From Botryllus schlosseri (Eukaryota), in assembly GCA_051294905.1 (NCBI GenBank), contig CM119371.1, positions 13,394,001-13,458,000 on the forward strand: a DNA stretch of 64,000 nt, given 5' to 3'. The position numbers and the translations under genes are program-made. Shown here in pieces: positions 12,201-57,956 of the stretch. How positions within the stretch are numbered: the first letter of the stretch is position 1; each line of letters starts with the position of its first letter. Below the pieces are notes generated by a model. The model did no database searches, was not told the DNA's origin, and saw only the letters and a list, made by a program, of their open reading frames with translations.

Positions 12201-15200
12201 GATTACAAATATAAAACTTGGCAATGACACTACTGTGTCTGATCTTATCTTGTCGTGGTAGCCTATATAATTGAAGTCTTAAAAGCTGTTACGGGCTGGA
12301 TGAATCAGCCATTTATGCTTGTCACTTGTCACATTCTTGCAGCATAATGAATCATACCAGCGAGTGCTGTCTAAGTCCTCAATGATGCCCCGGAAGAAGG
12401 TCTAAAGGCAAGCATAGAATATGCTGGTAAGACCAGTAAAAAGACTGTTCGCTTGCATTGATTAGCATATCCATAATGAATCTTAGATCATTACCGCCTG
12501 CATCACGACTAATGCTTGAATCAAACCAGACATGGACATAAAAAAGAATGTATAGAAGCGGTGCGGTAGTTACATTTCTTTTGAGTCCCAATGCAAGCTA
12601 CCTGGTCGGCCCACATATATTCTGAGCATACAGGGTTGTGTCCAGAATCCATCTCACATAGTGTGCTGCACCAGTTTGACGATAACTAATATACTTTACT
12701 TGCACTGCACCCAGAAAAGGAGGACCACTTGACGTAATCTCAATCATATCAGATAGGTATTACTGGGATCTATAAGTTCACAAGCATTCGCTGTTCCACG
12801 TCTGTCATGCGTGCAAGAGGGTATTGTTGTTCTGAACCTATCGTTATCTAGTTTTAACACTCAAAATTGAATGACCAAGTGTCTCATTTTAGTATTTAAT
12901 CACAAACGTACAATGTGCTTACAGAATCATCATTGCCGTTAGCATACTTCTTGAACTAGTAGAAGCACATAATCAGCAAGCCGCCGTGGTCGTGATCATT
13001 GAAGCATAGCTGATTAACCAATCAAGAGACGTGATTCCATGATTACTAGTCTTCTAGCCGTTCTATGGTCGCTAACACGCCCACTCGAAGGCAGCTACTT
13101 TCAAATGCATTTAGACAAATGTTAACGACTTTCCTGTAAGCTTATTGTAGGTTCATTGACGTTTCTTATCAATAGTCTACAGAATGAGACCTGGATACGC
13201 ATCTTTTTTGAGATTTTCCAAATTTTGAACAACCCTAGTTACCATGCAGTGGAACATTCACTAGTTCGCCACATTTTCACTTCATGATGATAAAACCTGA
13301 CCCTTAGACGATTCGTGACTGAAATTTGTGAGTTGGTTCTGGACGCGACCTTTCTTAAAATTACTCGAACTCGGGCTGACTCGATGGAAAAATGAAAATG
13401 ACTCGAGAGTGGACTCGGAGTGACTCGGAATGCCGTGAATTTGTTAGAACCATGAACGCAACAAACTAATCACGTGTCATGGGAATAAATAAATCAGAAG
13501 GTCGCAGTTTGGTATTTCGCTAACTAAGCAAGTAGTCATCATGGCAACCAGTGGCAATCTATTAGTTACATCTTAGGTCGCTTAGTCGCTGAACCATGTT
13601 ATGAAGGCCACTTCAAGGTACCGAGTACCGTAGTCGTACACTCCAACGATGGGTCGTTCGGCGTTCCGACATTTATATTACTAGGACGCATTCATTAATA
13701 TACTGATGCTACATTTATATATTTTTCCGCTCCTATTTTCGAAGATATTTGACCACGAGATTAATAGCCTACTTATATCAGGAGTATACCCGAATCCTGG
13801 ATTGGAATTACACTGCCCAACCCAAAAATGTTGTGATATCAGATCAGTCTCTATTATCACTCTGTTAAATTCGAAATATCAAAAGGCGATAACTTTAATG
13901 ACGACATCATACGTTTGTCCGCTCATCTTGTGTCTATATTTTATAATTAATATAAGAATTCTGTTCAAATAGTTATAAATGTGATGATTTTTTCCTGCCA
14001 GGCCTAAATTGATGCTAGAGTGAATCACATTTTGATGATGTGTGTTTATTGTCAGCCTGCTGGATCGGCTCACTTTCAATAGGAAAATTCCACCCTGTCA
14101 GATAAGGCCTACTTGGAAAGACATATAATACCCCAATATATGCTGCGGCCCGCGGCGTCGTCAAAACTGGAAAACTGGCCCGCTAGGACATTTGAGTTTG
14201 AGACCTTTGCATTACACGATCTGTGTTTCAAATTGCTACGTGATGTGTTTCCAAATCCATAATTCACGAAACAAGTGAATTATTGCCAATGATCTCTATG
14301 AATATATCACCACCCATAAAGGATGTCAAAAAAAAAGAAAGCCGAAAGTTGAAATTCAAAGATCGGTAATAACTAGAACCTTCACTTATCTACAAGGCCA
14401 TTTCGGCAAGCTGCACGCTTCTCAGAAATCAGATACCAAGACAATAAGCTATATATTATCCTTAGGACCGTAACTCCCGCACCTCAAACCCCCCAATTGT
14501 GTGGCGAGCTCGACGGGCGCCCAAAAACATAAATTATAGGTTACTTTTTTAAATTTATGCAACTTCATCAATATTTTTAGAGCGGGCACTCGGCGTTAGC
14601 CATTACCGCGCCACGACGCACCAAGATAAATGAACTTTAGGCCAACACGTGATTCCGAGAAGGAGGCACTGCGATTGCAACCGCTGATCAAATCAACTAA
14701 GTAAAGGGAATAAAGCTCGAGAGCGAGAAAACCTTCGCCGAAAAGGACTGCCTTATGTTGACCGAAAACCTCAAAGTCCAATTGTCCATAGGCAATATTT
14801 GCCAGTGAAGAAATACCAATCGGGAATCGGGGTCGTCTTTTTAGTTTGGTACGCTTCGGCGATTTCGATATCTTTTCACATAGCAGACGGGAGGTCACGA
14901 AATAACAACATGTAACGAAGTAATTATACCAACGGGCCCTCCCGAATATTTCCAAGACAGTAGGCCTACCTCATTCAGCTCTAGCGGTAAAACCAGGGTT
15001 GTAATGACTTGAGTCACGATTTTTTGATGACTCGACTTGACTCGAGTCATTTTCTCAAAATGCGGAAATGACTCGACTCGAGTCATTATGTGTATTGACT
15101 CGACTTGGACTCGAGTCATTGCGCATGACTCGAACCAAGTCATGTGACTCGAGACTCAGACGGCCAAGACCGACATTTCATTGTCATTTCGAAGAATAAA

Positions 15201-18200
15201 TAGAGTAACCTCCCTATTGGGTTTTTATCTATTGGTATTGGTACTTGAAAATGCGACCAGAAACTAATAAAAGTGAGGAAAATTAGTATATTAGGAATGC
15301 GAACCATTCGATATCACTAAAAAGAGTTCTAACGGTGGGTTTAACAAGACTTCAACTGGAAACTGAGCAGTCAACACAATGACTTGGACTCGGACTCGAG
15401 TCAATATCCTACGACTCGGACGCGAACCTCTGCTCGAGGACTTGGACTCGTACTTGACTCGGTGGCGAATTGAAAATGACTCGACTTGACTCGAGTCAAA
15501 ACTATAAAAGTAAGATTGACTTGTGACTCGGAACCTTGTGACTTGGTTACAACCCTGGGTAAAATTGAGTAGGCCACTCCGTGGGCTGAGAAAGGTTAAA
15601 AAATATAGCAATATATTTTTAATTACCAATATTATTGACCGATTGAATCATGAATCATGAATTAGGGCGCAGACGTTGCTAATTAGTGTATACAAGACAT
15701 CTCGTGCATGTCGAAGGGGGCTGGTATTGATAAAAAAAACGCAGGTAGGGGTGTAAAGAGAGTTTCAAATGTATCATGTTTAACATTTTGTTCAAAATAT
15801 AACGGTAAATATATATTTTTGGGTAATTAACCGTCACTTTGTCATGCCTCAGTATCAACAGATCCACTGAGCAGTGAGCACCAATTCATGTAATACACTG
15901 CTTCCAATTTTGAAATAAAATCAATACGCTGGATATTCCAAAATTTCTGACTCGGCCCGCCAGCATATTTTTGCTTCTCATTTGGCCCGCGGAGAAAAAT
16001 AATTGCCCACCCCTGCGTTAGAGTAATGGATTGCTATATGTCATCGATATTGATACCAATGTCACCTAAAGTATAAGATTTTAGCAAGTTAAAGCTTAGC
16101 CACTAGATGGCCTAGCGTTATGGTTTTACGTCCTAGCGTCCAGACGTGATAAAGTACTTAGCATTACTACTCCAGTAGCAATAGCTATTTCAGGGACATA
16201 ACAAAAGTAATTGGAGTAGAAAATTAAATGCCTGAAAGGTATTCAACTAAATTGTTTCAAAAGATAGATATGGTCGGGGCGTCACATAGTTATTCAGAGT
16301 GGGGGCGGCTAATTTCGAAATCGAAAGATGTTTCTTCGGGCCGAAAACAAAATGAATACAAAAACTACGTGCAGATCAACCCTTCGAAAATATAAACAGT
16401 TACCACGATAGGAATGGGATAGGAATACGACGTTGTATGTTGTTGCGGCATATGCAACCTCTCATGATACCCACACACACACGATCTGCGCGTATGCATA
16501 CCATGAGTTCGTGATGTACGTATGCCGCTGAACAGGGAAGATGCACAAATAGCCTTGTCAGGATTTCTAAATCTTGCGTCACCTCTACATGCTATCCCGG
16601 TAATGCTGATCGCTAAGCTGTTGAAGCCTGGAAACATCGATCGACAGTATATGACACCGACTCAAAAGATGTTTCACAAGCTGAAGAATGTTCAAGAAAT
16701 GCAATTTCTGTCAAGTGTCGAATCGGGCGACCCTCACCATGATCACAAAGCGCTACGATCTAGCAGACTCTGAGAACTAAATAATTCTAGCAGCATAATA
16801 AGATTAATTAGAGCGTAATGACAGTTATCTAATTATAATCTAACTTCTGAAATGTTTCAATGAAGAAATTGTGATTCCAACGTAATTTTACGCTTTCCTG
16901 AAAATGTCACAGAAGAACTCTATAGTGCGAAACGAGCCAATCATGGTGTACGGGACATTTGCTATTCACATTTGTTATTCCTATGAAAATGAATTCAAAT
17001 TTGATATGAAGTGAGCCATATGTTTGCGAATTAGATATCCTATTCGGATCAGAATGAATAATTATAATCTTAATGAAATTTGGAAAACCGAAAATTTCTC
17101 ATGTCATTTGACTTTGCGACATAATTATGCTGTAAAAATACAAAATTATTTTGCGTTCTTACGCCATTCTAGTACTCGTATACTCTACTGGACTAGGAGC
17201 TGGGTTTGGAATTGAATCAATCGAGTACTGACCACCTCTGCTCACGACCCTGTTTAGGTACCACTATCCAGACATGATTGACCCGGAACAATCGATGTTA
17301 TCGGAAAATCGAATCTCACTGTCTTTCCGTCCCATATCCGCCTGGCTGCAAAATTAATGTCACGCCGACTACAACAGCTGGTGTCAGGTAAGTCGCAACG
17401 TGGTATGAGACCAAACGGGAAACTGTTTCCAGTCCAAATACTTGACGCAATGACAGGTGGAGATGGTAGCCTTCCGTGCACATCCAACCGAAGACAACGA
17501 GGAACAGATAGTGAAGGCATATCGCGACTCCGGTGCATATCGCCTGCAAAATGAAGAACAAAAACATCGTTTCGTCGATTACATACAGCGCAGAGTACAT
17601 TGAACACTCTCGTATTCGACATTTCATGCTGGTTACGTCATATTTTGTGATACGATTGTTGATATACGACGTTCTTTTGAATTCTCTACTGGCTGCTGAC
17701 GATTACCCCTGACGAGTGTCAGCCGAAAATATTCGGGATTATTTCAATATGAATATTCCATTCAATTTTATCAATATTTTAGCCACTTGTTAGTAAATTT
17801 TCATGACGGCCAGGATAATTATTCTCGTGGTAGCATAAACATGTCTCTGAGAGGCCAAGATAGTGGGGTATCCGAAGGGTTAGGGGATCGTGCCCTCCTT
17901 TTCAAAATCCCTGAATTTAAGTTGCTCTCACGCCGGCGACCAACACCATTCGCTAATTCGAGCTACCCGCCAATGCGCTCCTCGAAAACTTGGATTCCAC
18001 GACACCTTGATCAAAGAGAATAGCAGACATGGCGACGCTTAATGCAGTTTTCAAATACCCATTGTCTTCCAGATCTACGCCATGAAATAAACTGCCTTGG
18101 AAGTGATATTCACAATTACAAATCCAAATTGAAAGCAACGCCATAGCTATCCATGTTCTTTATTGGTAAGTGATAGTTTTCTAGCACCACCGTAAAAATG

Positions 18201-21200: not shown

Positions 21201-24200
21201 TGTAGCATGCCAAAATGTCGAAGTATTACCAACTGGCGTACCAAATATTTTTAATTCTGTCACATTTAGCGTTTCAAGCAAGGAACCCTACCAACCGCTT
21301 ATCTGCAGCTTGCAACGGCATCGGTTACGCCAGTGATTCTTAACGTCTACGTCGCGAAGGGTATAAATTTTGGTCGCTACCGCACTAGCCTATCGCTTAA
21401 TGTACGTAATACTTGCATCACTTATTTTTAGATTGATCTATGATTGATCTTCTGCGGTGCCTTTGGTTATTTGCAGGTCCACTCTCTTCGATACCATAGC
21501 CAAAATTGTCGGTTTGATGTCACAATAAGATTGGTCTAACTCTAGATTTGTCTGCAAACCTCCAAATGTCGCGGTAAAGCGGTAAGTTGTCGTTTCCAGA
21601 TATATTGGAATCGCTTACACCAGCAGATATATTGGAATCGCTTACACAGGGGTGTCAAACTCAATTGATGTCGCGGGCCGGATTCAACACTTCAGGTCGC
21701 TTGCGGGACACACCAAAATTCTTCAATCCCAAAATACCTCAATGTCCATGCTCTTATTTATCTTTTGAATACTTCATTAACCAGCCTATATACATATTAG
21801 TATATTACATTATATTACGGATCCTAGGGGTTCTACTCTAGCTGCACCATTATATGCTGATTGGGAGACGGAATACAGTTATAAACCGATAAAATAGTGA
21901 CTTCAACGATGATATAACTTGTTAAATCTCGATGCTTCCTTTGTTTAAGTATTATATTGGCATCAACCCTGCGTATGCGTTGGCAGGAATGCAAAAGATT
22001 TAATTGTAAACGAGGACGTAGGCATTTGCTTCATATTATTTTACCGCGATTCAGGTTTCTCTGGAGGTCGGAGACCTCTATTCTACTTCCCATGTAACCT
22101 ATCAGGGTTTCACATTGGCGTTTTCGCTTCTGTGCTGTGAATAACTAGTTTTTGGTAGGTCGAATGAATTAGCACTGTCTTGCCTTCTCAGAATTGGGTG
22201 TCAATGCCAGCGACATGCTTCTTATGGTAACTAGAAACCACAACACCGTAGTCGGGTGATTATAATGTGGCCTATAAGCAACAAACATCCTCTAGATGTG
22301 CTCTCTTGAAGGACTAATTAATGGAAGTATTTCTTACTAAAAATATCATCATTTATTAGAAATGTGCTAGATAATACACTCATTTTTGAATTTACTCAGA
22401 ATTGCTTCGCGGGCCCGATAAAATCATCTGGCGGGCCAGATGTGACCCGCGGGCCGAATGTTTGACACCACTGGCTTACACGTACCAGACGCGTTGTGGA
22501 GAGATGGCGCAGTGGTATGATCCACGGCTGCAACACCAATGGGTGCGGGTTCGAGTCCGACCGAGGTCGACTTCCGAATTCCGATACCTAAGTGTTGGAG
22601 GTTTACCTAGGCTCCTCCTCGCCACCACATCCGCGTCAGCGGTGTCTTACAAAAGCCTAGAGGCCGTGCTATAAGTCGGCAGTTACGGAAAATAAGAAGA
22701 ATATCGGCCTGGTGTAAATGACCATAGTAGTCGACAAACACCATGAATACCCCAAAACAAACACGTACCAGACGAGACTAAAAGAATATGTCCTTTTGTG
22801 AGACGAACACGATTTAAAATTGGTATTTGACATGGAACTCAATATTTTCCTCGGCGGGTGTCATTCGATGAGTGCGGCTCAAGCTGTGGGTACTTGAATA
22901 CTCGGCTCTGATTATTACGGCACCTGGCGATTGGGCATATCCATGCCTAACGTTTCAGCGATCATGCGTCGGGTATACTACTTTCAACTTGTAGCGTACT
23001 TTGTGGGCCAACCGTTGTAAACAGCACATTGTGTGCTTATTGTGAATCATAAACGGTCACACAAAACCTGGTATCATACTTGACCCACCGCATATCCCAG
23101 TGGCGGCTCGTCCTATAGGGCAACTGGGGCATTGCCCCACCTAAAATTCTGTTCAATAACAATTCATTACCATTTATAGACGCACACCAATCTATATATA
23201 CCGAAATCACAGCGAAAATCGTATTTTTCTTGTCCTTTCGCTTGTAAATGCCCATATATAGCGAAGTCTCAGCGAAAATTGAATTCTCTTCTGTGTTTTC
23301 GCTTTGCGAATGCCTAGCCGGGGCATGCCCCGGTAGCGCTCATAACAAGCTTTCACTGTCTATTCTCTCAAAGTCGCGCACAATAAAGAAACGGTGGTTT
23401 ACTCTCTCCTATTCATAAAATTACCGAGCAACCGGGGCACAATAGCTCTGTGCCCCTAAGGTGTGATGTAACAATCGTATCTATAGCTGAACTCGGTTAC
23501 CGTCATATGCGTTTAGTCGACCTTTGCTGGTATAGGTCGATTTTGATGGTGTTTTACACCATGAAAACTCTTGAAACTTGGTATGTCATGTCGTGATGGT
23601 GGTATTTAACACTGCCCCAAGTTTCAGGGTTTCTACTTAAAGTTTAGGGCAGTAATTCCGTTTCCGAAGTTGATTGTGTGCTGATCCGTCATGTAGCCTA
23701 TCGCAAACAGATTTTACTCAAAAGCCGGTATTGGTATCCATTGATTTTGACGATGTTCAATACTGAGATCGGTTATGACATTTGGAACGGTAAGTCTTAA
23801 TGTTAGTATCGAACGCTGTACCAAGTTTTAAGTTTGTCACTGAACTGTGTTAGTGGTAATTTCGTTTCCTAATTCGAGTGAGAGCTGACTCGTCATTTAT
23901 CGCTAACAGATTATACGCAAAGCCGGTATTGGTCTCTATTGATTTTAACGATGCTCCTTACCTAGATCCGTCATAAGCTTTTGCACGGTATGTCTTGATT
24001 TTAGTATCGAACGCTGTGCCAAGTCTCAAGGTTGACACTCAATGATTAGAGCAGTAATTTCGTTATCAAGGTCGAGTATGGTAGAGATGTGCTCCGATCT
24101 GACAATTTAGCCTACAACGCATTGCGGATTTCACGCAAAAGCCGGTGTATCTGCGGTAACGTTAACTGAGATGATGATATCATTCTCAATTTGCATTCAA

Positions 24201-27200
24201 ATATTAACTTTAATATTATATTCTCCAATGTCAATTTCACCGTGAAATTGTGGCCTTCAAGCCATTTGCTTACAACCCCCTGTCAAGCGCGATAGCTATT
24301 TCGTTTTCGATGGCGGCTAACAGCTGATCACTTGATCAGCCTATTCCTCAGTAAATTTTACAATTAAATAGTATATTCATATTGAAATGAACCCGAATAT
24401 TTTCGGCTGACACTCGTCAGGGGTAATCGTCAGCAACTAGTAGAGAATTGGAAAGAACATTGTATATCAACAATCGTATCACAAAATATGACGTCACCAG
24501 CATGAAATTTCGAATGAGAGAGCGTTCAATGTACTATTTTTAGGTGATACACGAACTCCTTTTGTTGACAGAGTTTTGGTTGGTGTATTTTGATAAAAGT
24601 TGATTCCAAGGCACACAAATGGAATTGTGAACGGCCTCGACCTACGATTCGAAATCGGTCGTCTCGATAATTATTCGCACAAATCGGATTATCCAACAGA
24701 TGTTTGCCGATGGCAGAATTAATTGCCTTTGATCGATCAGCATCAATCTTAAGTGGATGAGTTAAGGGTGAGCTTTTCACATCGCGTGACGCACGTGTTC
24801 TGATAAATCTGGGGACATGTTGGTTTATGCGGTCCTGCAGACGTCTTGACGTTCTTCCCACGTAGCCACAATCACAGTGGCACCTATATTCGTACACTAC
24901 ATTACTTTGTTGAAGTGCAGGAAGCACGTCTTTGCGTGTTGAAGGGAGCAGTTGTGTTGTTGTAAAAATCACATTGGTTTTGACTGTATCGTAACATTTA
25001 CCTACAGCAGAAATCAATTGTTTTTCAAAGCGGGTGGAAATGGGGCCAATCCAAGGTAGATGGATATAAACATCTTTTATTGTTCGTGCGGTGGGCTCTG
25101 TTCGTTTTTCTGCGTTGAATTGCGTTAATTTCCTCTCCATGCCGCGGCTGATGACGTGTTCAGGGTAACCGTTATCAAGTAAGATTTTTCGGATGTAGTC
25201 AAGTTCTAAACTCAGTTTGTTACCCGAACATATCATCAACGCTCTATGCACGAGTGTGCCTATGAGGTTAATTTTTCTGCGCCGAGGACTAAATGAATTC
25301 CAGCGAAGGTATTGGCCTGTGAATGTCGGTTTTCTGAAAACAGACGTTTCAAATTTGTTGGTATTGCGCTTTTCAACTAATACGTCCAGAAATGATAATG
25401 AGTTATTGCGTTCTTTTTCTATTGTGAATTGCAAGGCCGGGTGAAGCGAGTTTAAGCGAATGAGAAATTGGTCACACTCCGATTCATTCCTGAAAATGAC
25501 AAATGTATCATCTACGTATCGGCGGTACAATAGTGGTTTGGCGGACTCACGCTGGGACAGAAGCTCGCCCTCGTAATACCCTACGAAAATATTGGCCAAA
25601 ATAGGTCCCAGGGGACTTCCCATGGCTAAGCCGTCTATTTGGCGAAACATGACCTCGTTAAAGCTAAATTCCACGCAGCAAGTTGCCGCTTGTAAAAGTT
25701 CAACAAAGACGTTACGCGGGATTGATGGTGGCGGTAACTTACCACCGTACAGCGCGTTGGCACAAATATCAATAGTCTCATGCAGCGGAACGTTCGTAAA
25801 AAGACTAGAGATATCAAATGAGCTCAGAAACACGTCTGGATTCGGCAAATCCAGGTTTCGTATTTCACCAGCGAACGTGAACGAATCGCGAACACATTCC
25901 GTGCCGTACAATTCCCGAACCGGTTCCAAAATGTCAATAAGCCATTTTGCCAGCTGATGGTGAGCAGACCCGATCATGGAAAGTATAGGTCTCACTGGGA
26001 CATTGTCTTTGTGAGTTTTTGGCAGTCCGTACATGCGTGGTCTTTGCGATCCCGTCGGTCTGATGGCGCTGTATGTTTCTGCCGTTAGGACACCGTTTTT
26101 CTTCAATGTCAGCAAACGGTTGGTCAGTCGTCTTTCAATTTTAGGTGTATTATCAAATTCCGAAACCGAACCAAGCGAGATAAATTTGGTTTTGTCATGC
26201 AATATTGATTCCATTTTCGAAATGTAGTCAGCTTTGTTCAGAATGACAACACCGGATCCTTTGTCTGGTTTGGTGATGTGGATTTCAGGGTTGGATCGCA
26301 ATGCTTTGATGGCTAGGAAACACTCTTTGTTCATCAGGAAGTCCGCCTTGTCGACCGGGCATCCACAATACGAATGCGCCAAATCTGATAACCGAGCTTT
26401 GAGAGCAGGTATACCCTCGTCTGATTTAGGTTCGTGGTGTTTTAATTGGCCGAGGAGAACTTCAAATTCCGCAAATACCTCCTCATTCTTGACAGTGGTA
26501 GGCGGCAGGCAAAAATTGAGCCCATGGGATAAAACAAATTCTTCAGTCGGGCTTAGCTTATGATCTGATAAGTTGAGTATATTCTTCTTGCTTGGACTTG
26601 CATTGCTACCGAATCGCTGGCTAACTAAGCGGTTAATGCCACGTTCGTTCCTTGTTGAATTCTGCTTTTCTTTGATAGTATCTATCGATGCCAAATAACG
26701 GCAGAAGCGAAATAAGTCGAAGAACGACAGGATTGAACGTACTTCCTTCTGCAGCGATCGACAAACACGGCGGAGAGTAGTAACCAACTTCTCATTCTTC
26801 CCAATCTCGTCATATAAAAACGCTTGTTCCATTCTAGGATTGAGGCGGGCGCGTGATTTTTCTATCCTGCTTTTGATAAATGCTGGTAACGTCTTTTTTG
26901 CGATACAAGCCTTCAAAAAGGCTGTTGTTGATACCGCAGTTCTCAATCTTCCCCTAGTCTTTATCAGCTGGTTTAGGATACGCAACTGACTTTCACTGTA
27001 CCGCTTTCGGAAATATTTGAAGAGCTTCTTGGAGGTACAGAACTTCAATATACAATTAAATAGTATATTCATATTGAAATGAACCCGAATATTTTCGGCT
27101 GACACTCGTCAGGGGTAATCGTCAGCAACTAGTAGAGAATTGGAAAGAACATTGTATATCAACAATCGTATCACAAAATATGACGTCACCAGCATGAAAT

Positions 27201-30200
27201 TTCGAATGAGAGAGCGTTCAATGTACTATTTTTAGGTGGTACACGAACTCCTTTTGTTGACAGAGTTTTGGTTGGTGTATTTTGATAAAAGTTGATTCCA
27301 AGGCACACAAATGGAATTGTGAACGGCCTCGACCTACGATTCGAAATCGGTCGTCTTGATAATTATTCGCACAAATCGGATTATCCAACAGATGTTTGCC
27401 GATGGCAGAATTAATTGCCTTTGATCGATCAGCATCAATCTTAAGTGGATGAGTTAAGGGTGAGCTTTTCACATCGCGTGACGCACGTGTTCTGATAAAT
27501 CTGGGGACATGTTGGTTTATGCGGTCCTGCAGACGTCTTGACGTTCTTCCCACGTAGCCACAATCACAGTGGCACCTATATTCGTACACTACATTACTTT
27601 GTTGAAGTGCAGGAAGCACGTCTTTGCGTGTTGAAGGGAGCAGTTGTGTTGTTGTAAAAATCACATTGGTTTTGACTGTATCGTAACATTTACCTACAGC
27701 AGAAATCAATTGTTTTTCAAAGCGGGTGGAAATGGGGCCAATCCAAGGTAGATGGATATAAACATCTTTTATTGTTCGTGCGGTGGGCTCTGTTCGTTTT
27801 TCTGCGTTGAATTGCGTTAATTTCCTCTCCATGCCGCGGCTGATGACGTGTTCAGGGTAACCGTTATCAAGTAAGATTTTTCGGATGTAGTCAAGTTCTA
27901 AACTCAGTTTGTTACCCGAACATATCATCAACGCTCTATGCACGAGTGTGCCTATGAGGTTAATTTTTCTGCGCCGAGGACTAAATGAATTCCAGCGAAG
28001 GTATTGGCCTGTGAATGTCGGTTTTCTGAAAACAGACGTTTCAAATTTGTTGGTATTGCGCTTTTCAACTAATACGCAATAACTCATTATCATTTCTGGA
28101 CGTATTAGTTGAAAAGCGCAATACCAACAAATTTGAAACGTCTGTTTTCAGAAAACCGACATTCACAGGCCAATACCTTCGCTGGAATTCATTTAGTCCT
28201 CGGCGCAGAAAAATTAACCTCATAGGCACACTCGTGCATAGAGCGTTGATGATATGTTCGGGTAACAAACTGAGTTTAGAACTTGACTACATCCGAAAAA
28301 TCTTACTTGATAACGGTTACCCTGAACACGTCATCAGCCGCGGCATGGAGAGGAAATTAACGCAATTCAACGCAGAAAAACGAACAGAGCCCACCGCACG
28401 AACAATAAAAGATGTTTATATCCATCTACCTTGGATTGGCCCCATTTCCACCCGCTTTGAAAAACAATTGATTTCTGCTGTAGGTAAATGTTACGATACA
28501 GTCAAAACCAATGTGATTTTTACAACAACACAACTGCTCCCTTCGACACGCAAAGACGTGCTTCCTGCACTTCAACAAAGTAATGTAGTGTACGAATATA
28601 GGTGCCACTGTGATTGTGGCTACGTGGGAAGAACGTCAAGACGTCTGCAGGACCGCATAAACCAACATGTCCCCAGATTTATCAGAACACGTGCGTCACG
28701 CGATGTGAAAAGCTCACCCTTAACTCATCCACTTAAGATTGATGCTGATCGATCAAAGGCAATTAATTCTGCCATCGGCAAACATCTGTTGGATAATCCG
28801 ATTTGTGCGAATAATTATCGAGACGACCGATTTCGAATCGTAGGTCGAGGCCGTTCACAATTCCATTTGTGTGCCTTGGAATCAACTTTTATCAAAATAC
28901 ACCAACCAAAACTCTGTCAACAAAAGGAGTTCGTGTATCACCTAAAAATAGTACATTGAACGCTCTCTCATTCGAAATTTCATGCTGGTGACGTCATATT
29001 TTGTGATACGATTGTTGATATACAATGTTCTTTCCAATTCTCTACTAGTTGCTGACGATTACCCCTGACGAGTGTCAGCCGAAAATATTCGGGTTCATTT
29101 CAATATGAATATACTATTTAATTGTATATTGAAGTTCTGTACCTCCAAGAAGCTCTTCAAATATTTCCGAAAGCGGTACAGTGAAAGTCAGTTGCGTATC
29201 CTAAACCAGCTGATAAAGACTAGGGGAAGATTGAGAACTGCGGTATCAACAACAGCCTTTTTGAAGGCTTGTATCGCAAAAAAGACGTTACCAGCATTTA
29301 TCAAAAGCAGGATAGAAAAATCACGCGCCCGCCTCAATCCTAGAATGGAACAAGCGTTTTTATATGACGAGATTGGGAAGAATGAGAAGTTGGTTACTAC
29401 TCTCCGCCGTGTTTGTCGATCGCTGCAGAAGGAAGTACGTTCAATCCTGTCGTTCTTCGACTTATTTCGCTTCTGCCGTTATTTGGCATCGATAGATACT
29501 ATCAAAGAAAAGCAGAATTCAACAAGGAACGAACGTGGCATTAACCGCTTAGTTAGCCAGCGATTCGGTAGCAATGCAAGTCCAAGCAAGAAGAATATAC
29601 TCAACTTATCAGATCATAAGCTAAGCCCGACTGAAGAATTTGTTTTATCCCATGGGCTCAATTTTTGCCTGCCGCCTACCACTGTCAAGAATGAGGAGGT
29701 ATTTGCGGAATTTGAAGTTCTCCTCGGCCAATTAAAACACCACGAACCTAAATCAGACGAGGGTATACCTGCTCTCAAAGCTCGGTTATCAGATTTGGCG
29801 CATTCGTATTGTGGATGCCCGGTCGACAAGGCGGACTTCCTGATGAACAAAGAGTGTTTCCTAGCCATCAAAGCATTGCGATCCAACCCTGAAATCCACA
29901 TCACCAAACCAGACAAAGGATCCGGTGTTGTCATTCTGAACAAAGCTGACTACATTTCGAAAATGGAATCAATATTGCATGACAAAACCAAATTTATCTC
30001 GCTTGGTTCGGTTTCGGAATTTGATAATACACCTAAAATTGAAAGACGACTGACCAACCGTTTGCTGACATTGAAGAAAAACGGTGTCCTAACGGCAGAA
30101 ACATACAGCGCCATCAGACCGACGGGATCGCAAAGACCACGCATGTACGGACTGCCAAAAACTCACAAAGACAATGTCCCAGTGAGACCTATACTTTCCA

Positions 30201-33200
30201 TGATCGGGTCTGCTCACCATCAGCTGGCAAAATGGCTTATTGACATTTTGGAACCGGTTCGGGAATTGTACGGCACGGAATGTGTTCGCGATTCGTTCAC
30301 GTTCGCTGGTGAAATACGAAACCTGGATTTGCCGAATCCAGACGTGTTTCTGAGCTCATTTGATATCTCTAGTCTTTTTACGAACGTTCCGCTGCATGAG
30401 ACTATTGATATTTGTGCCAACGCGCTGTACGGTGGTAAGTTACCGCCACCATCAATCCCGCGTAACGTCTTTGTTGAACTTTTACAAGCGGCAACTTGCT
30501 GCGTGGAATTTAGCTTTAACGAGGTCATGTTTCGCCAAATAGACGGCTTAGCCATGGGAAGTCCCCTGAGACCTATTTTGGCCAATATTTTCGTAGGGTA
30601 TTACGAGGGCGAGCTTCTGTCCCAGCGTGAGTCCGCCAAACCACTATTGTACCGCCGATACGTAGATGATACATTTGTCATTTTCAGGAATGAATCGGAG
30701 TGTGACCAATTTCTCATTCGCTTAAACTCGCTTCACCCGGCCTTGCAATTCACAATAGAAAAAGAACGCAATAACTCATTATCATTTCTGGACGTATTAG
30801 TTGAAAAGCGCAATACCAACAAATTTGAAACGTCTGTTTTCAGAAAACCGACATTCACAGGCCAATACCTTCGCTGGAATTCATTTAGTCCTCGGCGCAG
30901 AAAAATTAACCTCATAGGCACACTCGTGCATAGAGCGTTGATGATATGTTCGGGTAACAAACTGAGTTTAGAACTTGACTACATCCGAAAAATCTTACTT
31001 GATAACGGTTACCCTGAACACGTCATCAGCCGCGGCATGGAGAGGAAATTAACGCAATTCAACGCAGAAAAACGAACAGAGCCCACCGCACGAACAATAA
31101 AAGATGTTTATATCCATCTACCTTGGATTGGCCCCATTTCCACCCGCTTTGAAAAACAATTGATTTCTGCTGTAGGTAAATGTTACGATACAGTCAAAAC
31201 CAATGTGATTTTTACAACAACACAACAGCTCCCTTCAACACGCAAAGACGTGCTTCCTGCACTTCAACAAAGTAATGTAGTGTACGAATATAGGTGCCAC
31301 TGTGATTGTGGCTACGTGGGAAGAACGTCAAGACGTCTGCAGGACCGCATAAACCAGGGGTCGGCAACCTTTTGCTAGTCGCGGGCCAAATTTCGGGTGT
31401 ACAATCTTTGGCGGGCCGGATTGTTTCTTAGTACTATATTTTACGCTCACTTCGGTATATTAACCTACATTGCTGCAATCTCAATCATACCAATCCGAAG
31501 TCACATGTACTTACACTTCAACGACACAGAATAATTGTGACAATTGACGCAGCTTGCTTTGTGAAAGGTTTTCAACTTCTGGAAACAAGTCAGATGAAAC
31601 AAGAATCAGACCCTATTCAAAATGGACGTCCGAAATACGTGATCTTAGCTTGCTCTTCGTGAATTTCATTGTTCAAAGCTGTTGTTCACATGCGTACGTG
31701 CTTCCAAAAATCGATGCAATTTCTTTTGCATTGCTGGTCAAGCTGGGATAAAGACCAATTTCAAGAACGTAGTCTTTGTCAAAGTCATGCAGCGATATGC
31801 TCTTTGTATAAAATTTGTCATTCAATTCAACTGCATCGTATTTCAAAAAGGCCCATTTGAAATTTTCAGGCAATGGTATTGGCGTCCACATTAAACAGAG
31901 TACTGAATAGTCAGAATTCATTTTGTAGAGAAGGAATGTCGGAAAAGAGGGTGAATATTCAGTAGTTAAATTTCGTATCACAGTTACAAATGTAGTGTTG
32001 GTACTAGGTTTTCTCTCCTCCAGTATAGGAAAGTGAGCATAATTTTCTTTGTACTGTTGACATTTCCAGAGTCACAGATTTGTTTTGAATGCGCCTCAAC
32101 ATCTCATGTAGTTGTTTTCCCCTGAAGTTCCAAGTTCAATTTGTTCAGATGTGACGTTGAGAGTTACCCATTTTCGATTACAAGATTATGTATGAGTCGG
32201 CGATATTTGTATTTTCGAGGAAAGTTGCTATTTCATTTCTCAGTTCATACACTCGTGTAAGTATAGCTGCTCTACTCAATGAGCGAACATGACAGATATA
32301 GGCCTACATGACATCGCCATATTGATTCTCTGCTTCTAGTAATATCTGGCGTAACTGGTTCAGTTGATTAGACAAAAATCATATACAGTTTTCACCATTG
32401 TGGCTAATACACTATACAGGTTTTTTTGTCTGGGCACACAATGGCTTCTGGAAAATCAAACTATAGACAGGCTAACTAACATACGGAGGCTATATAGTTA
32501 TCTATAATTGAATAGTTTGAAATTCCGTCATTGCGTCTTGAGATGCTCCAAGCGTTTTTTGAAGCAAAGGAAGAACACGTTTATTGTCACACCCCGTTAG
32601 AGTGATTAACCTTTAAAAAAGCCTGGAACACCTTCGGTTGCGAGATACACCCGATTGATAAGCACTGATCCAGTCTAGTCTATCTCCATCTCCTACTTCA
32701 ACCACCTTCGTTTTATGGCGTAACAATAGACTAATACGATGTATAGGCTACTAATATATTGTAGCAATGCATCTTTTTTCATGCAGCGCTGCACTGCAGA
32801 TTGAAACTCATTATGAAGCGGCGGGCCGTATTCTTGTGATTACTAATTATTATGTCGCGGGCCGGACGATTTCGCTTGGCGGGCCGGATCCGGCCCGCGG
32901 GCCGTAGGTTGCCGACCCTTGGCATAAACCAACATGTCCCCAGATTTATCAGAACACGTGCGTCACGCGATGTGAAAAGCTCACCCTTAACTCATCCACT
33001 TAAGATTGATGCTGATCGATCAAAGGCAATTAATTCTGCCATCGGCAAACATCTGTTGGATAATCCGATTTGTGCGAATAATTATCGAGACGACCGATTT
33101 CGAATCGTAGGTCGAGGCCGTTCACAATTCCATTTGTGTGCCTTGGAATCAACTTTTATCAAAATACACCAACCAAAACTCTGTCAACAAAAGGAGTTCG

Positions 33201-36200
33201 TGTATCACCTAAAAATAGTACATTGAACGCTCTCTCATTCGAAATTTCATGCTGGTGACGTCATATTTTGTGATACGATTGTTGATATACAATGTTCTTT
33301 CCAATTCTCTACTAGTTGCTGACGATTACCCCTGACGAGTGTCAGCCGAAAATATTCGGGTTCATTTCAATATGAATATACTATTTAATTGTATATTGAA
33401 GTTCTGTACCTCCAAGAAGCTCTTCAGTAAATTTTACGCAAAATTCGGTGTTGGTCTGTTCGCATTAATTTTGACAGTGTACCATACCGAAAGGGCCATG
33501 AGGCCACTTCTCGATGATGTCATGTAACAGTGTACTAAGTTTAAAGCTTTCATCCACGTATTTATTCGGTAATATATTTTCCAAAGGCGATTTCGCAGCA
33601 GACCTATAGACAGTAATAAAGCCGTGTGTGTCGTGTTGCAGTCTCCAGTTTCAAGGCCAAAATCTCCTATGCTGTACCGAGACCGAATTTCCGAGGCTGC
33701 TCTTCTTAGTTCTTCAGAATGATGTTTTGGATTCAATATGACAGGCCCAATCTATGAGATAACAATTGCGTATCTGTCCGAACTCGTTGACATTTCCAAT
33801 TAGGCTTACGCTATCTCTCGAGTTATAGTCATTTCCAAGTCTAGTGCGAACATGAACCGTGTTGAATCTTTGTTCCGTACGCCGTTTACGCAGTTACCAC
33901 ACTTCAAGTCACAGCTCACCAGCGGACCTCTCGTGGCACATACGTTAAAATCACTGTTGCCGGCAAATTCATGTTACCGTACCATCATTACGTTACTTGT
34001 TTACGTTGAAAAGCTTCTTGGAGGTACAGAACTTCAATAAACAATTGAACAGTATATTCATATTGAAATGAACCCGAATATTTTCGGCTGACACTCGTTG
34101 GAAAACGCCATTGTGACGTCATCTTAATAAAAAGTCGCTTGCAGCCCTGCCCCACCACCCGATATTGTCACGAGCCGCCACTGGCATATCCTAACTGAAG
34201 CAAGTCTGCGTGGGCATCGGTTTTGGCAAGTTTTCCATGTAACAATTGGTCAGTTTTGAAGTCCAAAAAAGATTTTATCCGGTCAAACTACTACCCTGCA
34301 ATTTGGAGATAAGCCAGCTGCGATTAACACCAGTGGTTTCCAACCTGTGTCACCTCACCCCCCCCCCCCATATTTACGGTCCGAAAAATATAGCACATAA
34401 ACGGGAATTTATTCACTGGACTCTCATCGATGGTGCAGTGAGTATGAAAAGATCATTTTTCCGACTAGGTGCTCGGAAAACCGGTTTACGCGTTCACTCT
34501 CCGTTGAGTTTTCGCTCCCTATCGCTACCCAGTCGTCCCTATGGGATTTTCCGCACCTTGTTTCTCAAAATGGCCCACCAGGGGATGCGATTTTGCCCAC
34601 GTTGGGAGCCAATGAATTAACAGCTAAAATGTATGCAACGCATTGACCACATCTGCTTTTTGGAAATACGTACGTGGGAAATTTTCGGACATACTTTATA
34701 GACTTCTACTTGAAGCAGTTTCGAAAAGTCTTGCAAATCATTACCTCTACTTCTACTTGAGTATTAACGATGACTACTGGACAGCGTCTGATTATATCCT
34801 AATCTTTGTCGCTGGAACAACGCCACATTCATTCATGCATTCATTCATTCCCAATTTCATTCCCTTTCATCAGTTACATACTGTGTTCGCTATACTATTA
34901 TCAAAGTGAGCTATACATTCTATATGCGATTTCCAACCCACGACGCGCTTGACATCAGTCTGCATGATTCACACCCGCCATTATAGGCTACTTACCACAA
35001 CGCCGACGGTATCCATTAATATTGCGAAGTTGGTTAAGTGATTACATTCGCATTCTGTTCGGTTGCCATCCGTGTGCAATACTCTGCACCCTTTCGAGGA
35101 CCAAAACCCTGGGAATGTGTTTCCAGCTATGCGGTGACCTTTTTCCCAGTATACACATCTGGGAAAGTGATATATCAATGGCCGATTAGGTGAACTGACT
35201 GGCTAAGCGGTGAGTATATCATCCACATTGAGTGTATATTTCGAACATCAAAATTGAAGAAATCCCGTCGTGAATATCTAAAGATCACTGCTAGCTGGTA
35301 TGTGGAAGCTCATGGAATCATGGAAATAAAACTGGATACAGTCATTGATACCTCTTGTTCAATTCAATATTGCCAATCCCATTTTTGAAAAGCAGGGCTG
35401 ACATCCACCATGAGCATGGATTCCGAATAGTAGTTGAGAAAAAGAGAACATCAACATTATAACCGAATTTGAATTTTATCTGAATTCGAACGTGGGAATG
35501 GATTTTTTATTAATAATTGATCATTATCATTTCAATGCTACTATTGGAAAACCTGATCAAAATGAACTGGTGTATCTTACTCATTTACACCAACTGGAAC
35601 GGTTGTGAGGGCCGAATTACATACCAGGAAGTACCGCCTGAATGATTTGCACCTCAGGCTGTGGTAAAGATTTCGTACATAGTACTATTTCCACCCATTC
35701 ATTTCCATAAGTCATCATCCATAGGATTTGTTAAGATTGCAGTGAAGCTGAATTCTAGAATCCGGCTTTCAAGCAGGAGAGTATTTGCAATTCATTTGTA
35801 GCAAGCGGATTCGGGGTGGGGTTGGGAAGTCAGTCCTGCACTACAAACCTCGGACTTATTAGACCTTTGGTTATATTTCGCTTCGTGAGTTTCTGGTAAA
35901 ACTGTTACCCTACAAGCAAGACACGAATTCAAAACGCACATAACCGAGGGTATACAATCACTGAAACAATACTTACTTTACACCGATGATATTGGCCTCA
36001 ATATGTTCCTTGTGTTGCAATGATATAATCACTTTCTCTCTTTTGAACTGCCCGGCATAAGCTGGTCGTATGGATGCCGCTAAAATTCTGGTCACAATTT
36101 TCGATGTCGACGTTGCATTTTCAATACTTTCATTGACAGGATTTTGTGGTGCTTTCGCAAATGTTCTGCCTTCTGAAAATAAGTCCCAATCGATCAGTAC

Positions 36201-39200
36201 ATGTGAGCAAATACCACAATGTATGTAAATGGATCAAAACCTCACAAATATAATTTCTTTATTCGCAATTGAATAACATATTTATATTGAAATACGCCGA
36301 AATGTTTTAGCCTGACACTCGTCAGGGGTAATCGTCAGCAAGTTAGCATGAATATGTTATTCAATAGTATTGAAATCCCATCTCTTCAAATTATTCAGAA
36401 TTAAAACAATAAGTACTCCGGCTTGAAACACTGCTGTTGTAAAAGAGGAGTATTTTAAAGTTACGCTGAGTGTGTGATTCAACAATGCATAGCCTACTGA
36501 CTGTCTGGAAACATCCGTGCACTTGTTATTAAAGCACACCAACGACCAGCATAAATGTTAACGTCATGCAGAAAGCAAAATCACTCAAGAATATACTTTT
36601 CTCACGCAGCAGCCGTTCCAAGCTCTCGTACAAAATGAAAACAATGTCAACTTTTCCGCCCACAATAGGTTCTACAGGTATCAACGCTGATCCATACTTC
36701 GCAATGCTTGAGGATATGTTTATTCTCTTTATGGCAGCTGTGGCGACACATGACGTCATCTGGAATAAGTGATGAATAATACTTCAATTTAAAATAAAAT
36801 TATATATGTAATAATTAATTGCCTAAAGATGAATGAATGGTAACATTGGAATCATGGCGTATATAATAGTGCATTAGGTCGATTGTGCCTTTGGCGCTGA
36901 ATTATGCAAGATTTCTACATCGTCATGGTCACATATGTTCATAAACTGAAGAGTTTTATGGTGGAATTCGTGAATTATCATCTTTTGTCTTCTGCTAGAA
37001 TACATCTCACTTCACGCTCGATTTCCTTCACCCTATTGCAACTAGACCAGTGACTCCTATCCTCTTGGAAACCACTGAACCACCCGACAATCACCATATG
37101 TATGCCTTCATTGAATTCTTCGTAGTTGGAAAATTAAACTGTTCTTCTTTCAGTAATTTTATATCAGGCTAAGCGTAAAAAAAACGGAATGAAATGCGTC
37201 TTTATTTCATTATCACAGTTATAGAAGATTTGAATTGTAATCTAGTTAAGGCACTGTAATCCACAACAAATCATTCAGGAAGATAAAAATCGACATATTT
37301 CCGAACAATTATAGCCCAGCGACACGGCAACGAGTGATTCACACCGAGTTTCCAATGAGCGGCAATGAAGTGTCAGGACGAAATGAACCAGTTACCTTTT
37401 AGGAGATAATTTAAGGTTTGCCGGACTTCAGATTGGTAAATGCCACTTTCATATCATTTTTGTAGCAAAATCTGCTGCCTTCTTTCATTTTCATATTACT
37501 CATACACGTGTAGGACTGATCTAGCAGACATCTTGAAGCAAACGCTATTGGCATCTCAAAGCCTTGACATCCGACAAACCCCTGAGACTGATTCACTGAT
37601 ACTCTTGAATTCGATCGCACCCGTATTAAGAACCATTGGAGCAGACATTTAAATTTGAGGATAAATAATATCGGGTTAACATACGACCCGGTAATTAAAT
37701 AAGCTGGTTCGAGGTTCGGAACTAGAAGATTGCTGTCATTGCAACATTCATTCCATTATTACATAAATTGATATAATAAATAGAATTCAGGCATACCTAT
37801 CTAGTTTTTGCCATACAAGTGGAAGTTCCTGAAATTCTGGACCTGTCAGCCTTCGCCAACCAACAATAAAGTCCAAACTGTGACTCAATAAACCTACACG
37901 ATATATTAAAACAGTGTATTTGCCGATTTCCACCAGCTCGTAAACTGCATACCAAGTAAATAGCACTTTCTCGCGCAGAAACTTATCCCAAAAGTATTTT
38001 CGACTTATCAAAATCCAAAGTTCAAACAGTAAGTATAGTTGTGCCTAAATAACTGTTCATGCAGAAATAGAATTACTTTAACGGCGAAAACGCTTGAGCA
38101 AGTATTACAGGTAGGCAAAACCGACTTGGGTAATAGAAAAAAATCGAAATACTTCGTGACGGATCACCTATGATAAAGATCGAGTCTCTGTGCCAACATC
38201 ATACCTGAATCACCGCATTTGACCCCATCAAAATCTCAGTCTTGGTGTTGTTAAAAAACGACGCTTGTAAAAAAGCTGCGCTTTCTAGAGTGTTAGATAT
38301 CAGTTCTCCGTGACTTGAAATATTCTGAAACACGGAAGGTTTAGGCGTTTTGTCCCGGTCTTCTACGATGAACGTACATGGGATAGCGCCCTTACGTGTT
38401 GCAGTTCATCCCAAGCTGCCGAATTCCTCTCGCTGAGCAGGCCGTCGACCGTTTTCACAACAGATTTGGCAATTTCGCCGGCAACTTTTCCATCACGTAC
38501 AACCCCCGAGGACGCAAGCTCTATCAATCTGCGGGAAAACATCAAATACTCGTGAACGTATTGAAAACAGTGATTCTCAAACTTATCAGAAGGGTTTGTT
38601 TAGAAACGCGGGTTAATGAACGTGAAAGTCGCAGCCTGTTTTCATGAATGATTATTATTTGAGCACTTGATTAATATATATATACTTGATTTACGATTTC
38701 CGTCATGAAAATCTTTTTTTTCCCACTGTTATCTAGCTCAAAGTAAAGTATACATTCTGGCTGGAGTGCTGGGTTCGTCTCAGGGCCCAATCGCGTATTT
38801 TGTCCTCTAATTTAGAACTACTCACGACCCTCATTTCAATGCACGAAATGACAATATAAGTTCCGAACGAATTCATTTATGGTATCTCTTGTTGATAATA
38901 AGGGTGACAACATTGGTTGTCGATTTTTAGAGAATTTGCATAAATTGATTCTGGAATGTAAGTGATTTGAAAACATAGATGGTAATAAATGTTTTTCCAA
39001 ATGTCATAAAATTAAATATGTAATATCCTAGAAAAAGATGTAACTACAGTCGACTCCACTTCATTCCAGCATCGGATAGCCCGGATGACCGCTTTATTCG
39101 GTCAAAATGCTCAGAAACGGAAAAAGTGAAAATTACAAGTAAAAAACGCCGGTTGATTCGGACAATTATCCGCTGAATTCGAGCACAGGTTGCAATTTCT

Positions 39201-55404: not shown

Positions 55405-57145
55405 CAGAGGTCTCAAACTCAAACGTGCTCGCGGGCCAATTTCCTACTTTCTGATGGCGCCGCGGGCCGCAGCACCAATGATAGGGGAATTCAAGGTATC
55501 TCAAAGTGGGTCTTATTTTCAGATTTCGAGCATAGGCCTACTTCTGATAACTAGGCTACTTTTATCATGTCATTACCGAAGTCAAATAGAATCAGCGTTT
55601 GATTTTACCTTCGAATGTTGGAACAGATCAATAACAACTTGAACATAATGTGCCATATCAATAGAAATGTGCAATCGCCGAAGAATCCATTGGTGTTACA
55701 GCTGTGCAGCGTAGGCTACGACTAGTTAATACTCGCCACATTAAATTGGCGATAATAACATATATAAAGATACCCAAGATGGCATAGGATGTAACCAACT
55801 ATACACCAAAGGAGCAATATTATGCCGATGGCGGTTGCCATACCTACCTGCTTAGATATCTAACTAAGCTACACAACGCAAGCTACGACCTTTTGATATT
55901 TTACAATTTCTCCTACCGGTTTGATAGTTTGTTCATAGCGTTCTATATGGTGTGGACACAACAATGTTCCCTCCAAGCTGCGCAGTGCTGACACGGTCTC
56001 TGCGCACAGAAAATCTAAGTTGCGCACAAAAAATCCGAAATGATGACCTTATTTTTAGTCGTTACGCACTGTTGTTCAAGGGTCTGCGCAGTGAGTCGGT
56101 GAGTGTAGGCAGACTAGTCAAAAATTAGAGGGAACATTGGACACAAGCAAGTGTCATGGCTCAGTGAAATTGGTCTACGTCACACTTTCCATTTGGTCAA
56201 TGGCAATTTGATGGCAATTTCGACCGGCTTGTCCAGCAATAAATTTGATAAAACGGGTATCAATGGAAAGCTAACACGGTAATGATTGCGATAATATAAA
56301 TTTCATTCTGTTCGTGGCCCTGGAACTCGCGAAAATAAACCTCGGATGTTGCATTGTAAGTGAGTTTGGTATTGTGATGCAACCATGCTGTCTGAGCAGC
56401 TCTGGAGTAAATGCGCACGACAGTGAGAGTGAGAGTGTGAATGCTCAATCGCTTGCGTAACAATGGCCAATACGCTTGCAGCTTGCGGTGGTCCGCACCT
56501 GCTCCCAGTCGTCATTGCTGCGACAAAATACCAAACTCACTTACAATGCAACATTCTAGGCTTATTTTGGGGAGTTCCAGGACCACGAGCAGATTAAATA
56601 TATATTCTCGCAATTAGTACCGCGGTAGCTTTCGATTGATACCCGTCTATCAAATTTCATGCTACGCAAGCCGGTCAAAAATTACCGTCAATTTGCCTTT
56701 GACCAAATGGAAAGTGTGACGTACACCAATTTCACTGAGCCGTGAGATTTGCTTGTGTCCACACCATGTAGGACACCATGGTTGTACCAAGTCACGACAT
56801 TCCGAGTCACAAAAGTCTTTCTCTGATTGTAACGTTTGACGCGACGAGTACGAGTACGAGTAATTCTACAAAAGGTCGCGACCAAGTCCAAATCACAATT
56901 TTCAGTCACGATTCATCAACGGGTCATGTACCATCATAAACAAATAATTTCACGTAATAGCTGATCTGCCACTGCGTGGTAACTTTTTAAAGTGATGTAT
57001 TAGTGAAGTTTGATGAGTAGTTTCAGGCTTCTGGAGTTGTTTTAGAGCGAATTCTAAGTTCTCAAATTAAAAAAATGGTAGTTAAATACTGCCGAATACT
57101 TCGAAATCCAAAATGCCGTCGCAGGCCGCGTGTTTGAGACCTTTG
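55405..57145. mobile_element. hAT-type element containing a foldback MITE (55948-56766) that itself contains a small MITE (55962-56139)
   Basis: TIR cagaggtctcaaac/gtttgagacctttg, TSD ttgtagat; ~250-bp inverted arms; inner TIR caatgttccctc/gagggaacattg. Confidence 0.82.
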
Positions 57146-57702: not shown

Positions 57703-57814
57703 TTGCGACTCTTGGTGCAAAGCGGTGTATAATTTAGGTACAGGATAAAAACAACTACCCTTACTACTCAACTGAAATTATAACAATTGAATAGCAGGTC
57801 TTTTTTCTTTTTTG

Positions 57815-57956
57815 AAATGATCCAGAAAATTTTTGACTGACACTCGTCAGGGGTAATCGTCAGCAATTAGTGGAGAATTGGAAATAGCATTGTACACTAA
57901 TACCGTATCGACAATCGTATCTCCAAATATCACATCGCAGGGTTGAAATTTTGAAT
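57815..57956 (-). mobile_element. Old PLE pLTR remnant with degenerate hammerhead
   Basis: ctgacactcgtcaggggtaatcgtcagcaa..ag..gagaattggaaa matches the PLE UTR. Confidence 0.78.

Follow-up and report, generated by a model that had tools for sequence, protein, structure and literature searches.

A Penelope-type palindrome in Botryllus schlosseri that was probably primed from both ends of one staggered cut

The 64-kb window analyzed here (the whole stretch of 64,000 nt from the tunicate Botryllus schlosseri, contig CM119371.1 of assembly GCA_051294905.1) contains two copies of a Penelope-like element (PLE) that lie head to head, point outward and share one target-site duplication (TSD). When the window is compared with itself, one arm is seen on the minus strand (24359-28076) and the other on the plus strand (28074-33426). 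The outer end of each arm falls at one of two element positions, which we call sites A and B. The features of the locus, which include an open reading frame (ORF) with a predicted reverse transcriptase (RT), are as follows.

23098..34183: host, an element of ~1.9 kb present in many copies, with CAGTGGCGGCTCGT as its terminal inverted repeats and GCATATCC as its 8-bp TSD; it holds the Penelope palindrome
24348..24361, plus strand: left copy of the palindrome's TSD, TCAGTAAATTTTAC, a 14-nt maximal match whose last 3 nt are also the element end
24359..28076, minus strand: left arm, 3,718 nt, composed of one complete unit (2,692 nt) and, upstream of it, 1,026 nt of a partial unit; site A end, without tail
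24526..27072, minus strand: ORF of 848 aa from the first Met, with DKG, RT (YVDD) and, at the C terminus, a GIY-YIG-type endonuclease whose two motifs have two cysteines between them, as predicted from motifs
27051..28076, minus strand: partial tandem unit (pseudo-long terminal repeat, pseudo-LTR) of the left arm, 99.8% identical to 24359-25384
28074..28076: central 3-nt microhomology, ACG/CGT, common to both arms
28077..28100, plus strand: unpaired 24-nt spacer, element sequence found in the right arm only
28074..33426, plus strand: right arm, whose 3,778 nt of element sequence are split into 28074-31354 and 32930-33426; site B end
31347-31354 and 32922-32929: 8-bp TSD GCATAAAC of a hAT-like element
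31355..32921: this non-autonomous hAT-like element, 1,567 bp, with 16-nt terminal inverted repeats; later than the palindrome
33394..33426, plus strand: 33-nt tail, at the right end only, equal to the sequence between sites A and B
33424..33437, plus strand: right copy of the TSD, TCAGTAAATTTTAC, whose first 3 nt are also the tail end

An earlier note on this DNA had described two ~3.7-kb arms joined at ACG (28074-28076) with a spacer at 28077-28100, one TSD that overlaps the element by 3 nt on each side, and a handful of differences between the arms. The self-comparison bears out all of this, and the differences amount to 5 substitutions in 3,718 aligned positions. The length of 9 kb given in the note has to be revised; the Penelope part is ~7.5 kb because the 1,567-bp hAT-like element splits the right arm, and 1,575 nt of the 9-kb span belong to this insertion. 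Besides the nested element, the note had missed the one-sided tail and the tandem content of the arms, each of which holds 1.4 units of 2,692 nt. The two arms are not of equal extent. At the center the right arm extends 27 nt further 5' than the left arm, and at its outer end it reaches 33 nt further out. The ORF of the right arm is interrupted by the insertion, and upstream of the break it has 2 amino-acid differences from that of the left arm. The true stagger at the locus is probably 12-13 nt, the mode of the family, rather than 14 nt because the 14-nt match includes ambiguous overlap bases.

The palindrome is real, and it is one insertion. A single TCAGTAAATTTTAC joins the left flank to the right flank in all nine of the other host-repeat copies examined, as the earlier note had predicted for an empty site, and these nine are paralogues and not the empty allele. 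Therefore, the duplication is real and no target sequence was lost. The flanks are unmirrored and continue one host repeat across the TSD, and only one arm has the tail and the nested transposon with its own TSD, which speaks strongly against a fold-back artefact as the source. We give next to no credence to such an error at 28075, whether in the assembly or in a read, as the arms are also separated by the 5 substitutions and the same geometry recurs with different centers in 62 other loci. It is true that long-read fold-back chimeras are a known artefact type and that the Logan contigs offer nothing against one here: in 4 runs of one sample none carries the fold or spans the center, and only the element-like side, 28074-28125, is covered. 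That sample holds at most 0.83 of the flank words and is probably another individual, and the contigs drop rare forms. Contigs that run from the TSD into the right flank are present in all four runs (52, 8, 5 and 3 contigs); they represent paralogous empty sites and not an allele because the target is a high-copy repeat.

The element fits an endonuclease-bearing (EN+) PLE of the Penelope/Poseidon type, by the definitions in the portion of PMC8557442 drawn on here. RT and a putative C-terminal endonuclease occur in a single ORF, together with DKG, a partial tandem pseudo-LTR, an inverted copy and a tail. The RVT_1 profile matches residues 420-564 of the frame (E 7.8e-9), and DKG is at 282, upstream of the RT core. 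The endonuclease was read by eye from the C-terminal motif VVY..C.C.C.YVG at 737-751, which has cysteines between its halves. VVYEYRCHCDCGYVG is followed by histidines at 764 and 803, according to a reading of the motif by itself. A Pfam search of the ORF matched no GIY-YIG model, and a PDB sequence search gave weak RT matches only. A pattern search of the protein found no CX2-5CxxC finger in the RT-endonuclease linker; Neptune and Nematis have such a finger, according to the relevant part of PMC8557442.

The same arrangement is common in the genome. Exact matches number 2,529 for a 41-nt piece of the 3' end and 284 for a 28-nt piece that lies 688 nt further in. Among the first 100 matches listed of the 2,529, neighbors at most 5 kb apart point outward in 15 of 18 cases and inward in none. 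Our long-copy sample consists of the 81 loci behind the first 100 matches listed of the 284; 39 of them are simple head-to-head pairs, and at least five more are pairs broken by later insertions. The counts that follow are based on 63 palindromes (64 rows minus one L147 duplicate); three unanchored candidate pairings and all insertion-split palindromes except for this locus are not among them. The earlier note had proposed to survey other copies for the same inverted architecture and TSD length; the palindromes counted here share the architecture and have a TSD mode of 12-13 nt. It had also called the locus unusually long and clean. Long it is, being the second longest of the 63, but a DNA transposon interrupts it, its architecture is ordinary for the family, and locus L022 is both longer and cleaner. 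The latter (482-9581) is an uninterrupted 9.1-kb palindrome with arms of 4,877 and 4,225 nt that have only 2 differences over 4,225 nt, both at the outer end. L022 belongs to a sister subfamily (86% identity, period 2,683, an open frame of 857 aa). Comparable arms, ~3.95 and 3.77 kb, are present at the C12 locus. Thus, the locus is a long but ordinary member of a published insertion type.

The outer ends of the palindromes follow a strict rule. Sites A and B are ~34 nt apart, ~21 and 55 nt past the first Met, and every one of the 63 palindromes has one end of each kind; there are no AA and no BB pairs, which would have passed the selection filter. Both orientations occur (B-left/A-right 33, A-left/B-right 30), and single arms with a visible end are evenly divided, A and B having 16 each by hand count. 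In 26 palindromes the longer arm bears the tail, and in 37 the shorter one does. The TSD is 12 nt long in 24 loci, 13 nt in 21, 14 nt in 4 and 11 nt in 2. This gives 12-13 nt in 45 of the 63 and 11-14 nt in 51, the remaining 12 being shorter, longer or unfound, and the TSDs have a G+C content of 24%. Of 42 rows of single arms, interrupted loci included, 17 have a TSD of 9-13 nt next to the arm. A search for a hidden tiny inverted arm at their 5' ends gave no match longer than 11 nt in 41 of the 42 rows, and the exception is an interrupted palindrome.

Target and element overlap at the outer ends by more bases than simulation predicts, with means of 1.8 nt at A (0.76 simulated) and 2.1 nt at B (0.91 simulated). 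The observed overlap was reached in none of 2,000 simulation replicates. This test used 44 clean loci, 19 having been excluded for divergence or an unclear TSD. On the side of the site-A primer, about 26 of the 44 loci have a G as the first base beyond the TSD (a hand count that is partly subject to definitional bias), which is possibly a nicking preference.

The centers were analyzed in the 54 loci whose arms are at least 95% identical. Thirty of these centers have no insertion, and in 22 of the 30 the arms overlap by at least 2 nt, compared with 16% by chance. The other 24 have short central insertions, and a direct 10-13 nt copy of the neighboring arm end was found in 5 of the 13 insertions inspected. 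Microhomology together with templated inserts resembles joining by polymerase theta. A slipped word of ~10 nt, in two or three copies, forms the central inserts of L035 (~2529-2542), the C12 locus, L113 and L123; either slippage of a repair polymerase or telomerase-like repeat addition by the RT could have made them.

The two arms of a palindrome also resemble each other in sequence and in length. Lineage variants are common to both arms in 258 cases and present in one arm only in 36 (45 loci with an overlap of at least 100 nt). Both arms reach at least 688 nt in 15 of 32 long-arm loci, compared with ~6% expected from exact-match counts. Ten of 22 long pairs have arms that end no more than 100 nt apart, compared with 2.3 by permutation, and the same test on a subset chosen regardless of the partner gives 8 of 15 compared with 1.5. 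The overall rank correlation of arm lengths among the long pairs is weak (rho 0.40, p 0.065).

A comparison of tandem registers, which might have shown from which unit each arm came, gave no such signal. Each of the 5 differences at this locus is confined to a single one of the four copies. Of the 38 sites that vary at the C12 locus, 36 do so in one copy and none follows the register, and the tandem units of C16 and L022 are near identical. Arms of more than one unit with such near-identical units fit the circular or multimeric template proposed in the part of PMC4209133 drawn on here, as far as sequence comparison can indicate.

On balance, we favor the explanation that the palindrome is one insertion of a Penelope/Poseidon-type element in which each of the two ends left by a staggered cut served as primer for reverse transcription of one shared template, and end-joining through the 3-base microhomology then united the two cDNAs. 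The endonuclease would nick both strands ~12-13 nt apart and leave 3' overhangs. One overhang would prime at A and the other further downstream by ~34 nt, at B, with 1-4 base pairs assisting each, and this would produce one plain and one tailed end. Both cDNAs, which are of the same sense, would run ~3.7 kb over a more-than-unit template and stop 27 nt apart. Their 3' ends would anneal at ACG/CGT, and mutual extension would fill in the palindrome and the TSD. What came afterwards can be seen in the sequence: the hAT-like element inserted into the right arm, and the arms have come to differ by 5 substitutions. The earlier note had proposed a single event that began with a staggered cut and priming from both strands, and the empty paralogous sites and the 63 family palindromes support both points. 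A more specific version applies to the whole family, and here we are tentative, giving it somewhat less than an even chance. It states that twin priming is obligately asymmetric: an RT dimer seated on both ends of the 12-13 nt staggered cut would copy one RNA twice, with one subunit starting from A and its partner from B with 1-4 nt of pairing, and host end-joining would fuse the cDNAs. If this is true, a single reaction would yield the inverted pseudo-LTRs, the tail at one end and the palindromes of kilobase size.

One competing explanation has a single priming followed by pure fold-back or self-priming: a cDNA or an antisense RNA would fold back and serve as its own template, and trimming or joining at the second nick would follow. 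Such a course has been suggested in print for PLE palindromes of the head-to-head kind (in the section of PMC3846280 drawn on here), and the earlier note had named a folded-back cDNA as its second option. Taken alone, this locus permits it, the tail being on the longer arm. As a general route it fails because with one hairpin the tail would always go with the same class of arm, whereas the family has 26 tails on long arms and 37 on short ones; the excess microhomology at both outer ends also indicates two primings. We therefore regard it as improbable. Even more so is the proposal that two independent RNAs, or successive insertions at the same site, gave rise to the two arms. The lizard protein is a predicted dimer (PMC11167929, in the part drawn on here) that could hold two RNAs, and a single expressed source copy in the cell would yield matching arms. 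Nevertheless, there is only one TSD, AA and BB ends would be expected and neither is among the 63, arm lengths are coupled, and lineage variants agree by 258 to 36.

A more serious rival, although we still think it unlikely, joins twin priming to a fold-back center. A and B would both prime, and one long cDNA would snap back (at this locus its end, CGT, could pair with the ACG 24 nt back to make a 3-bp stem and a 24-nt loop), copy itself in the direction of the target and there meet a short second cDNA by homology. This would explain the variants common to both arms without added assumptions, would account readily for the enrichment of near-equal arms, and would permit the tail on either arm, as is found in the 11 near-symmetric loci (5 longer, 6 shorter). 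The difficulty is that near-symmetric and lopsided loci have similar centers; microhomology of at least 2 nt, 0-1 nt and insertions number 4, 2 and 5 in the former and 16, 6 and 15 in the latter. Near-symmetric loci are also not richer in private variants common to both arms (10 in 17.8 kb, compared with 21 in 19.9 kb; hand-summed, with L022 left out). The central inserts of L119 and L123 copy the end of the longer arm, and that of L148 resembles a snap-back of the short arm. Such inserts would be expected if both arms had a free central 3' end, but template jumps by the RT could mimic them.

Several points weigh against end-joined twin cDNAs as the explanation. The near-symmetric class, to which this locus belongs, does not separate end-joined cDNAs from a fold-back center, and the tail of the locus is on the longer arm, as fold-back permits. 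The class has 11 arm pairs, and in none of them do the two ends lie within 10 nt; this counts against the explanation because a common run-off point would predict some. The second RT would have to pass the RNA:cDNA hybrid made by the first, and later gene conversion could be part of the source of arm identity. Three samples, which overlap and were not drawn at random, supplied the 63 loci from a family with 2,529 exact 3'-end matches, and the ~6% expectation for long arms is based on exact-match counts. Finally, the Poseidon protein of Anolis carolinensis in vitro displayed no strand difference in start site and no primer-template homology (PMC11167929, in the part drawn on here).

Comparison with known systems places the locus among described PLE insertions. 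The published architecture consists of an inverted 5'-truncated copy, a tail of 30-40 nt at one end only and a TSD (PMC3846280 and Fig. 2 of PMC8557442, as far as the portions cited go), and the former paper attributes the inverted copies to self-priming on an antisense template. This idea does not fit the tail positions in the present family, and the family rules argue against it. An example in the cited portion of PMC3846280 is Pen2a_Av of Adineta vaga, which likewise has a pseudo-LTR, an inverted copy at the 5' end, a one-sided tail, a TSD that encloses the entire insertion and an ORF of ~840 aa. The inverted copy there is ~200 nt, whereas here it is 3.7 kb and includes a whole unit, and the TSD there is 8-10 nt compared with 12-14 nt here.

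The Anolis Poseidon protein cuts and extends both strands in vitro and starts reverse transcription at two sites that bracket the tail (PMC11167929; this and what follows refer to the portion drawn on here), in agreement with the explanation favored above. The two start sites, the AT-rich targets and a hammerhead near the start codon, putative in our case, are features in common. The start sites there are 111-118 nt into the ORF, compared with ~21 and 55 nt past the first Met here. The strict A+B pairing in each event and the 1-4 nt microhomology go beyond that account because it contains no strand difference and no primer homology, and an inverted arm, present here, is not modeled there.

LINE-1 elements offer another parallel. 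Their twin-primed insertions have discrete TSDs and junction microhomology (PMC11702581, in the part cited), and the likeness includes priming at the second nick and microhomology at both the second priming site and the inner joint. In LINE-1, adjacent and different stretches of RNA are copied, which produces an inversion, whereas here the same stretch is copied twice, which produces a palindrome; both arms cover the same interval from the 3' end, and no inverted piece comes from an adjacent part of the RNA. Both primings here are also at fixed internal sites. A literature search of main texts, largely from openly accessible papers, found no proposal of twin priming for PLE palindromes. How tandem and inverted PLE insertions arise is named as an open question in the cited part of PMC8557442, and the corresponding part of PMC11167929 leaves the steps after priming unvalidated. 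The element is a steady source of kilobase palindromes in the B. schlosseri genome, and as a young family with thousands of copies it supplies countable rules that can be tested directly in vitro: ends that are strictly A+B, a stagger of 12-13 nt, microhomology at each of the three joints, a shared template and coupled arm lengths.

Some other members of the family have more complicated structures. L001-L002 (G000:C16:20951155-20960757) has an arm of 3.6 tandem units, which differ by only 0-3 bases each, and a 1.3-kb inverted tailed arm as its partner; the near-identical units fit repeated passes over one template. In L122 (2513-4347) the inverted piece derives from another region of the element, further upstream (unit positions 409-903), which resembles twin priming of the L1 type and is unlike the usual palindromes. 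In L147 (2912-6565) the entire palindromic insertion with its TSD is present twice, inverted and 1.2 kb apart, as the result of either a later inverted duplication or an assembly duplication.

A hammerhead-like motif lies directly upstream of the first Met and was matched by eye to the description in the part of PMC4209133 drawn on here. Its copies are as follows.

29061..29094, plus strand: minimal hammerhead-like motif, CUGACGA...G/C...GAAA, with the palindrome AAUAUU, UC and an ACCC/GGGU stem, read by eye
33328-33361 (plus strand), 27083-27116 (minus strand) and 24391-24424 (minus strand): further copies of the motif

GCTGAC at 29051-29056 is complementary to GTCAGC at 29074-29079 in loop II of the motif and might form a pseudoknot. 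An Rfam search gave no hammerhead match for 29061-29094. The microRNA-like matches that Rfam did return were rejected, as they arise from the center of the palindrome, and the remaining weak matches were attributed to chance. By eye, short-arm ends did not cluster where the hammerhead is predicted to cut, 36 nt ahead of site A.

Three levels of nesting can be recognized at the locus, the host with its TSD GCATATCC, the Penelope palindrome inside it, and the hAT-like element with its TSD GCATAAAC inside the palindrome. The host element has internal repeats of ~200 nt at 23517-24077, and a first look found 1,248 candidates genome-wide. The 1,567-bp element is presumably a hAT, a label given from the type of its terminal inverted repeats and TSD. 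The 40 best-scored relatives are 89-96% identical to it, and 8-bp TSDs flank five of five other copies. The possibility that it was carried within the RNA template was rejected because only one arm has it and the inserts found at the same site in other copies are different ones. Four different hAT-like elements occupy this GCATAAAC site in four independent Penelope copies, at the following positions.

Window 31347-31354
L001 ~4870-6284
L014 ~5868-6749
L131 ~980

A second site, TGTTAGAT, was struck in L052 and L097 by two further elements, and from these sequences there seems to be an insertion hotspot within the endonuclease region of the Penelope family.

Elsewhere in the window the Penelope family of the palindrome has left smaller traces. 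A tailed 3' stub of 93 nt (96% identity) is at 34006-34098 on the minus strand, in the same host element and 570 nt downstream of the palindrome, and further stubs are at 17594-17771, 36266-36341 and 57812-57956. The window also contains a 1.6-kb repeat pair of 97% identity with additional pieces (703-3129, 8110-10037, 14208-14510) and two old imperfect palindromes of 620-690 nt, at 56138-56761 and 58453-59140.

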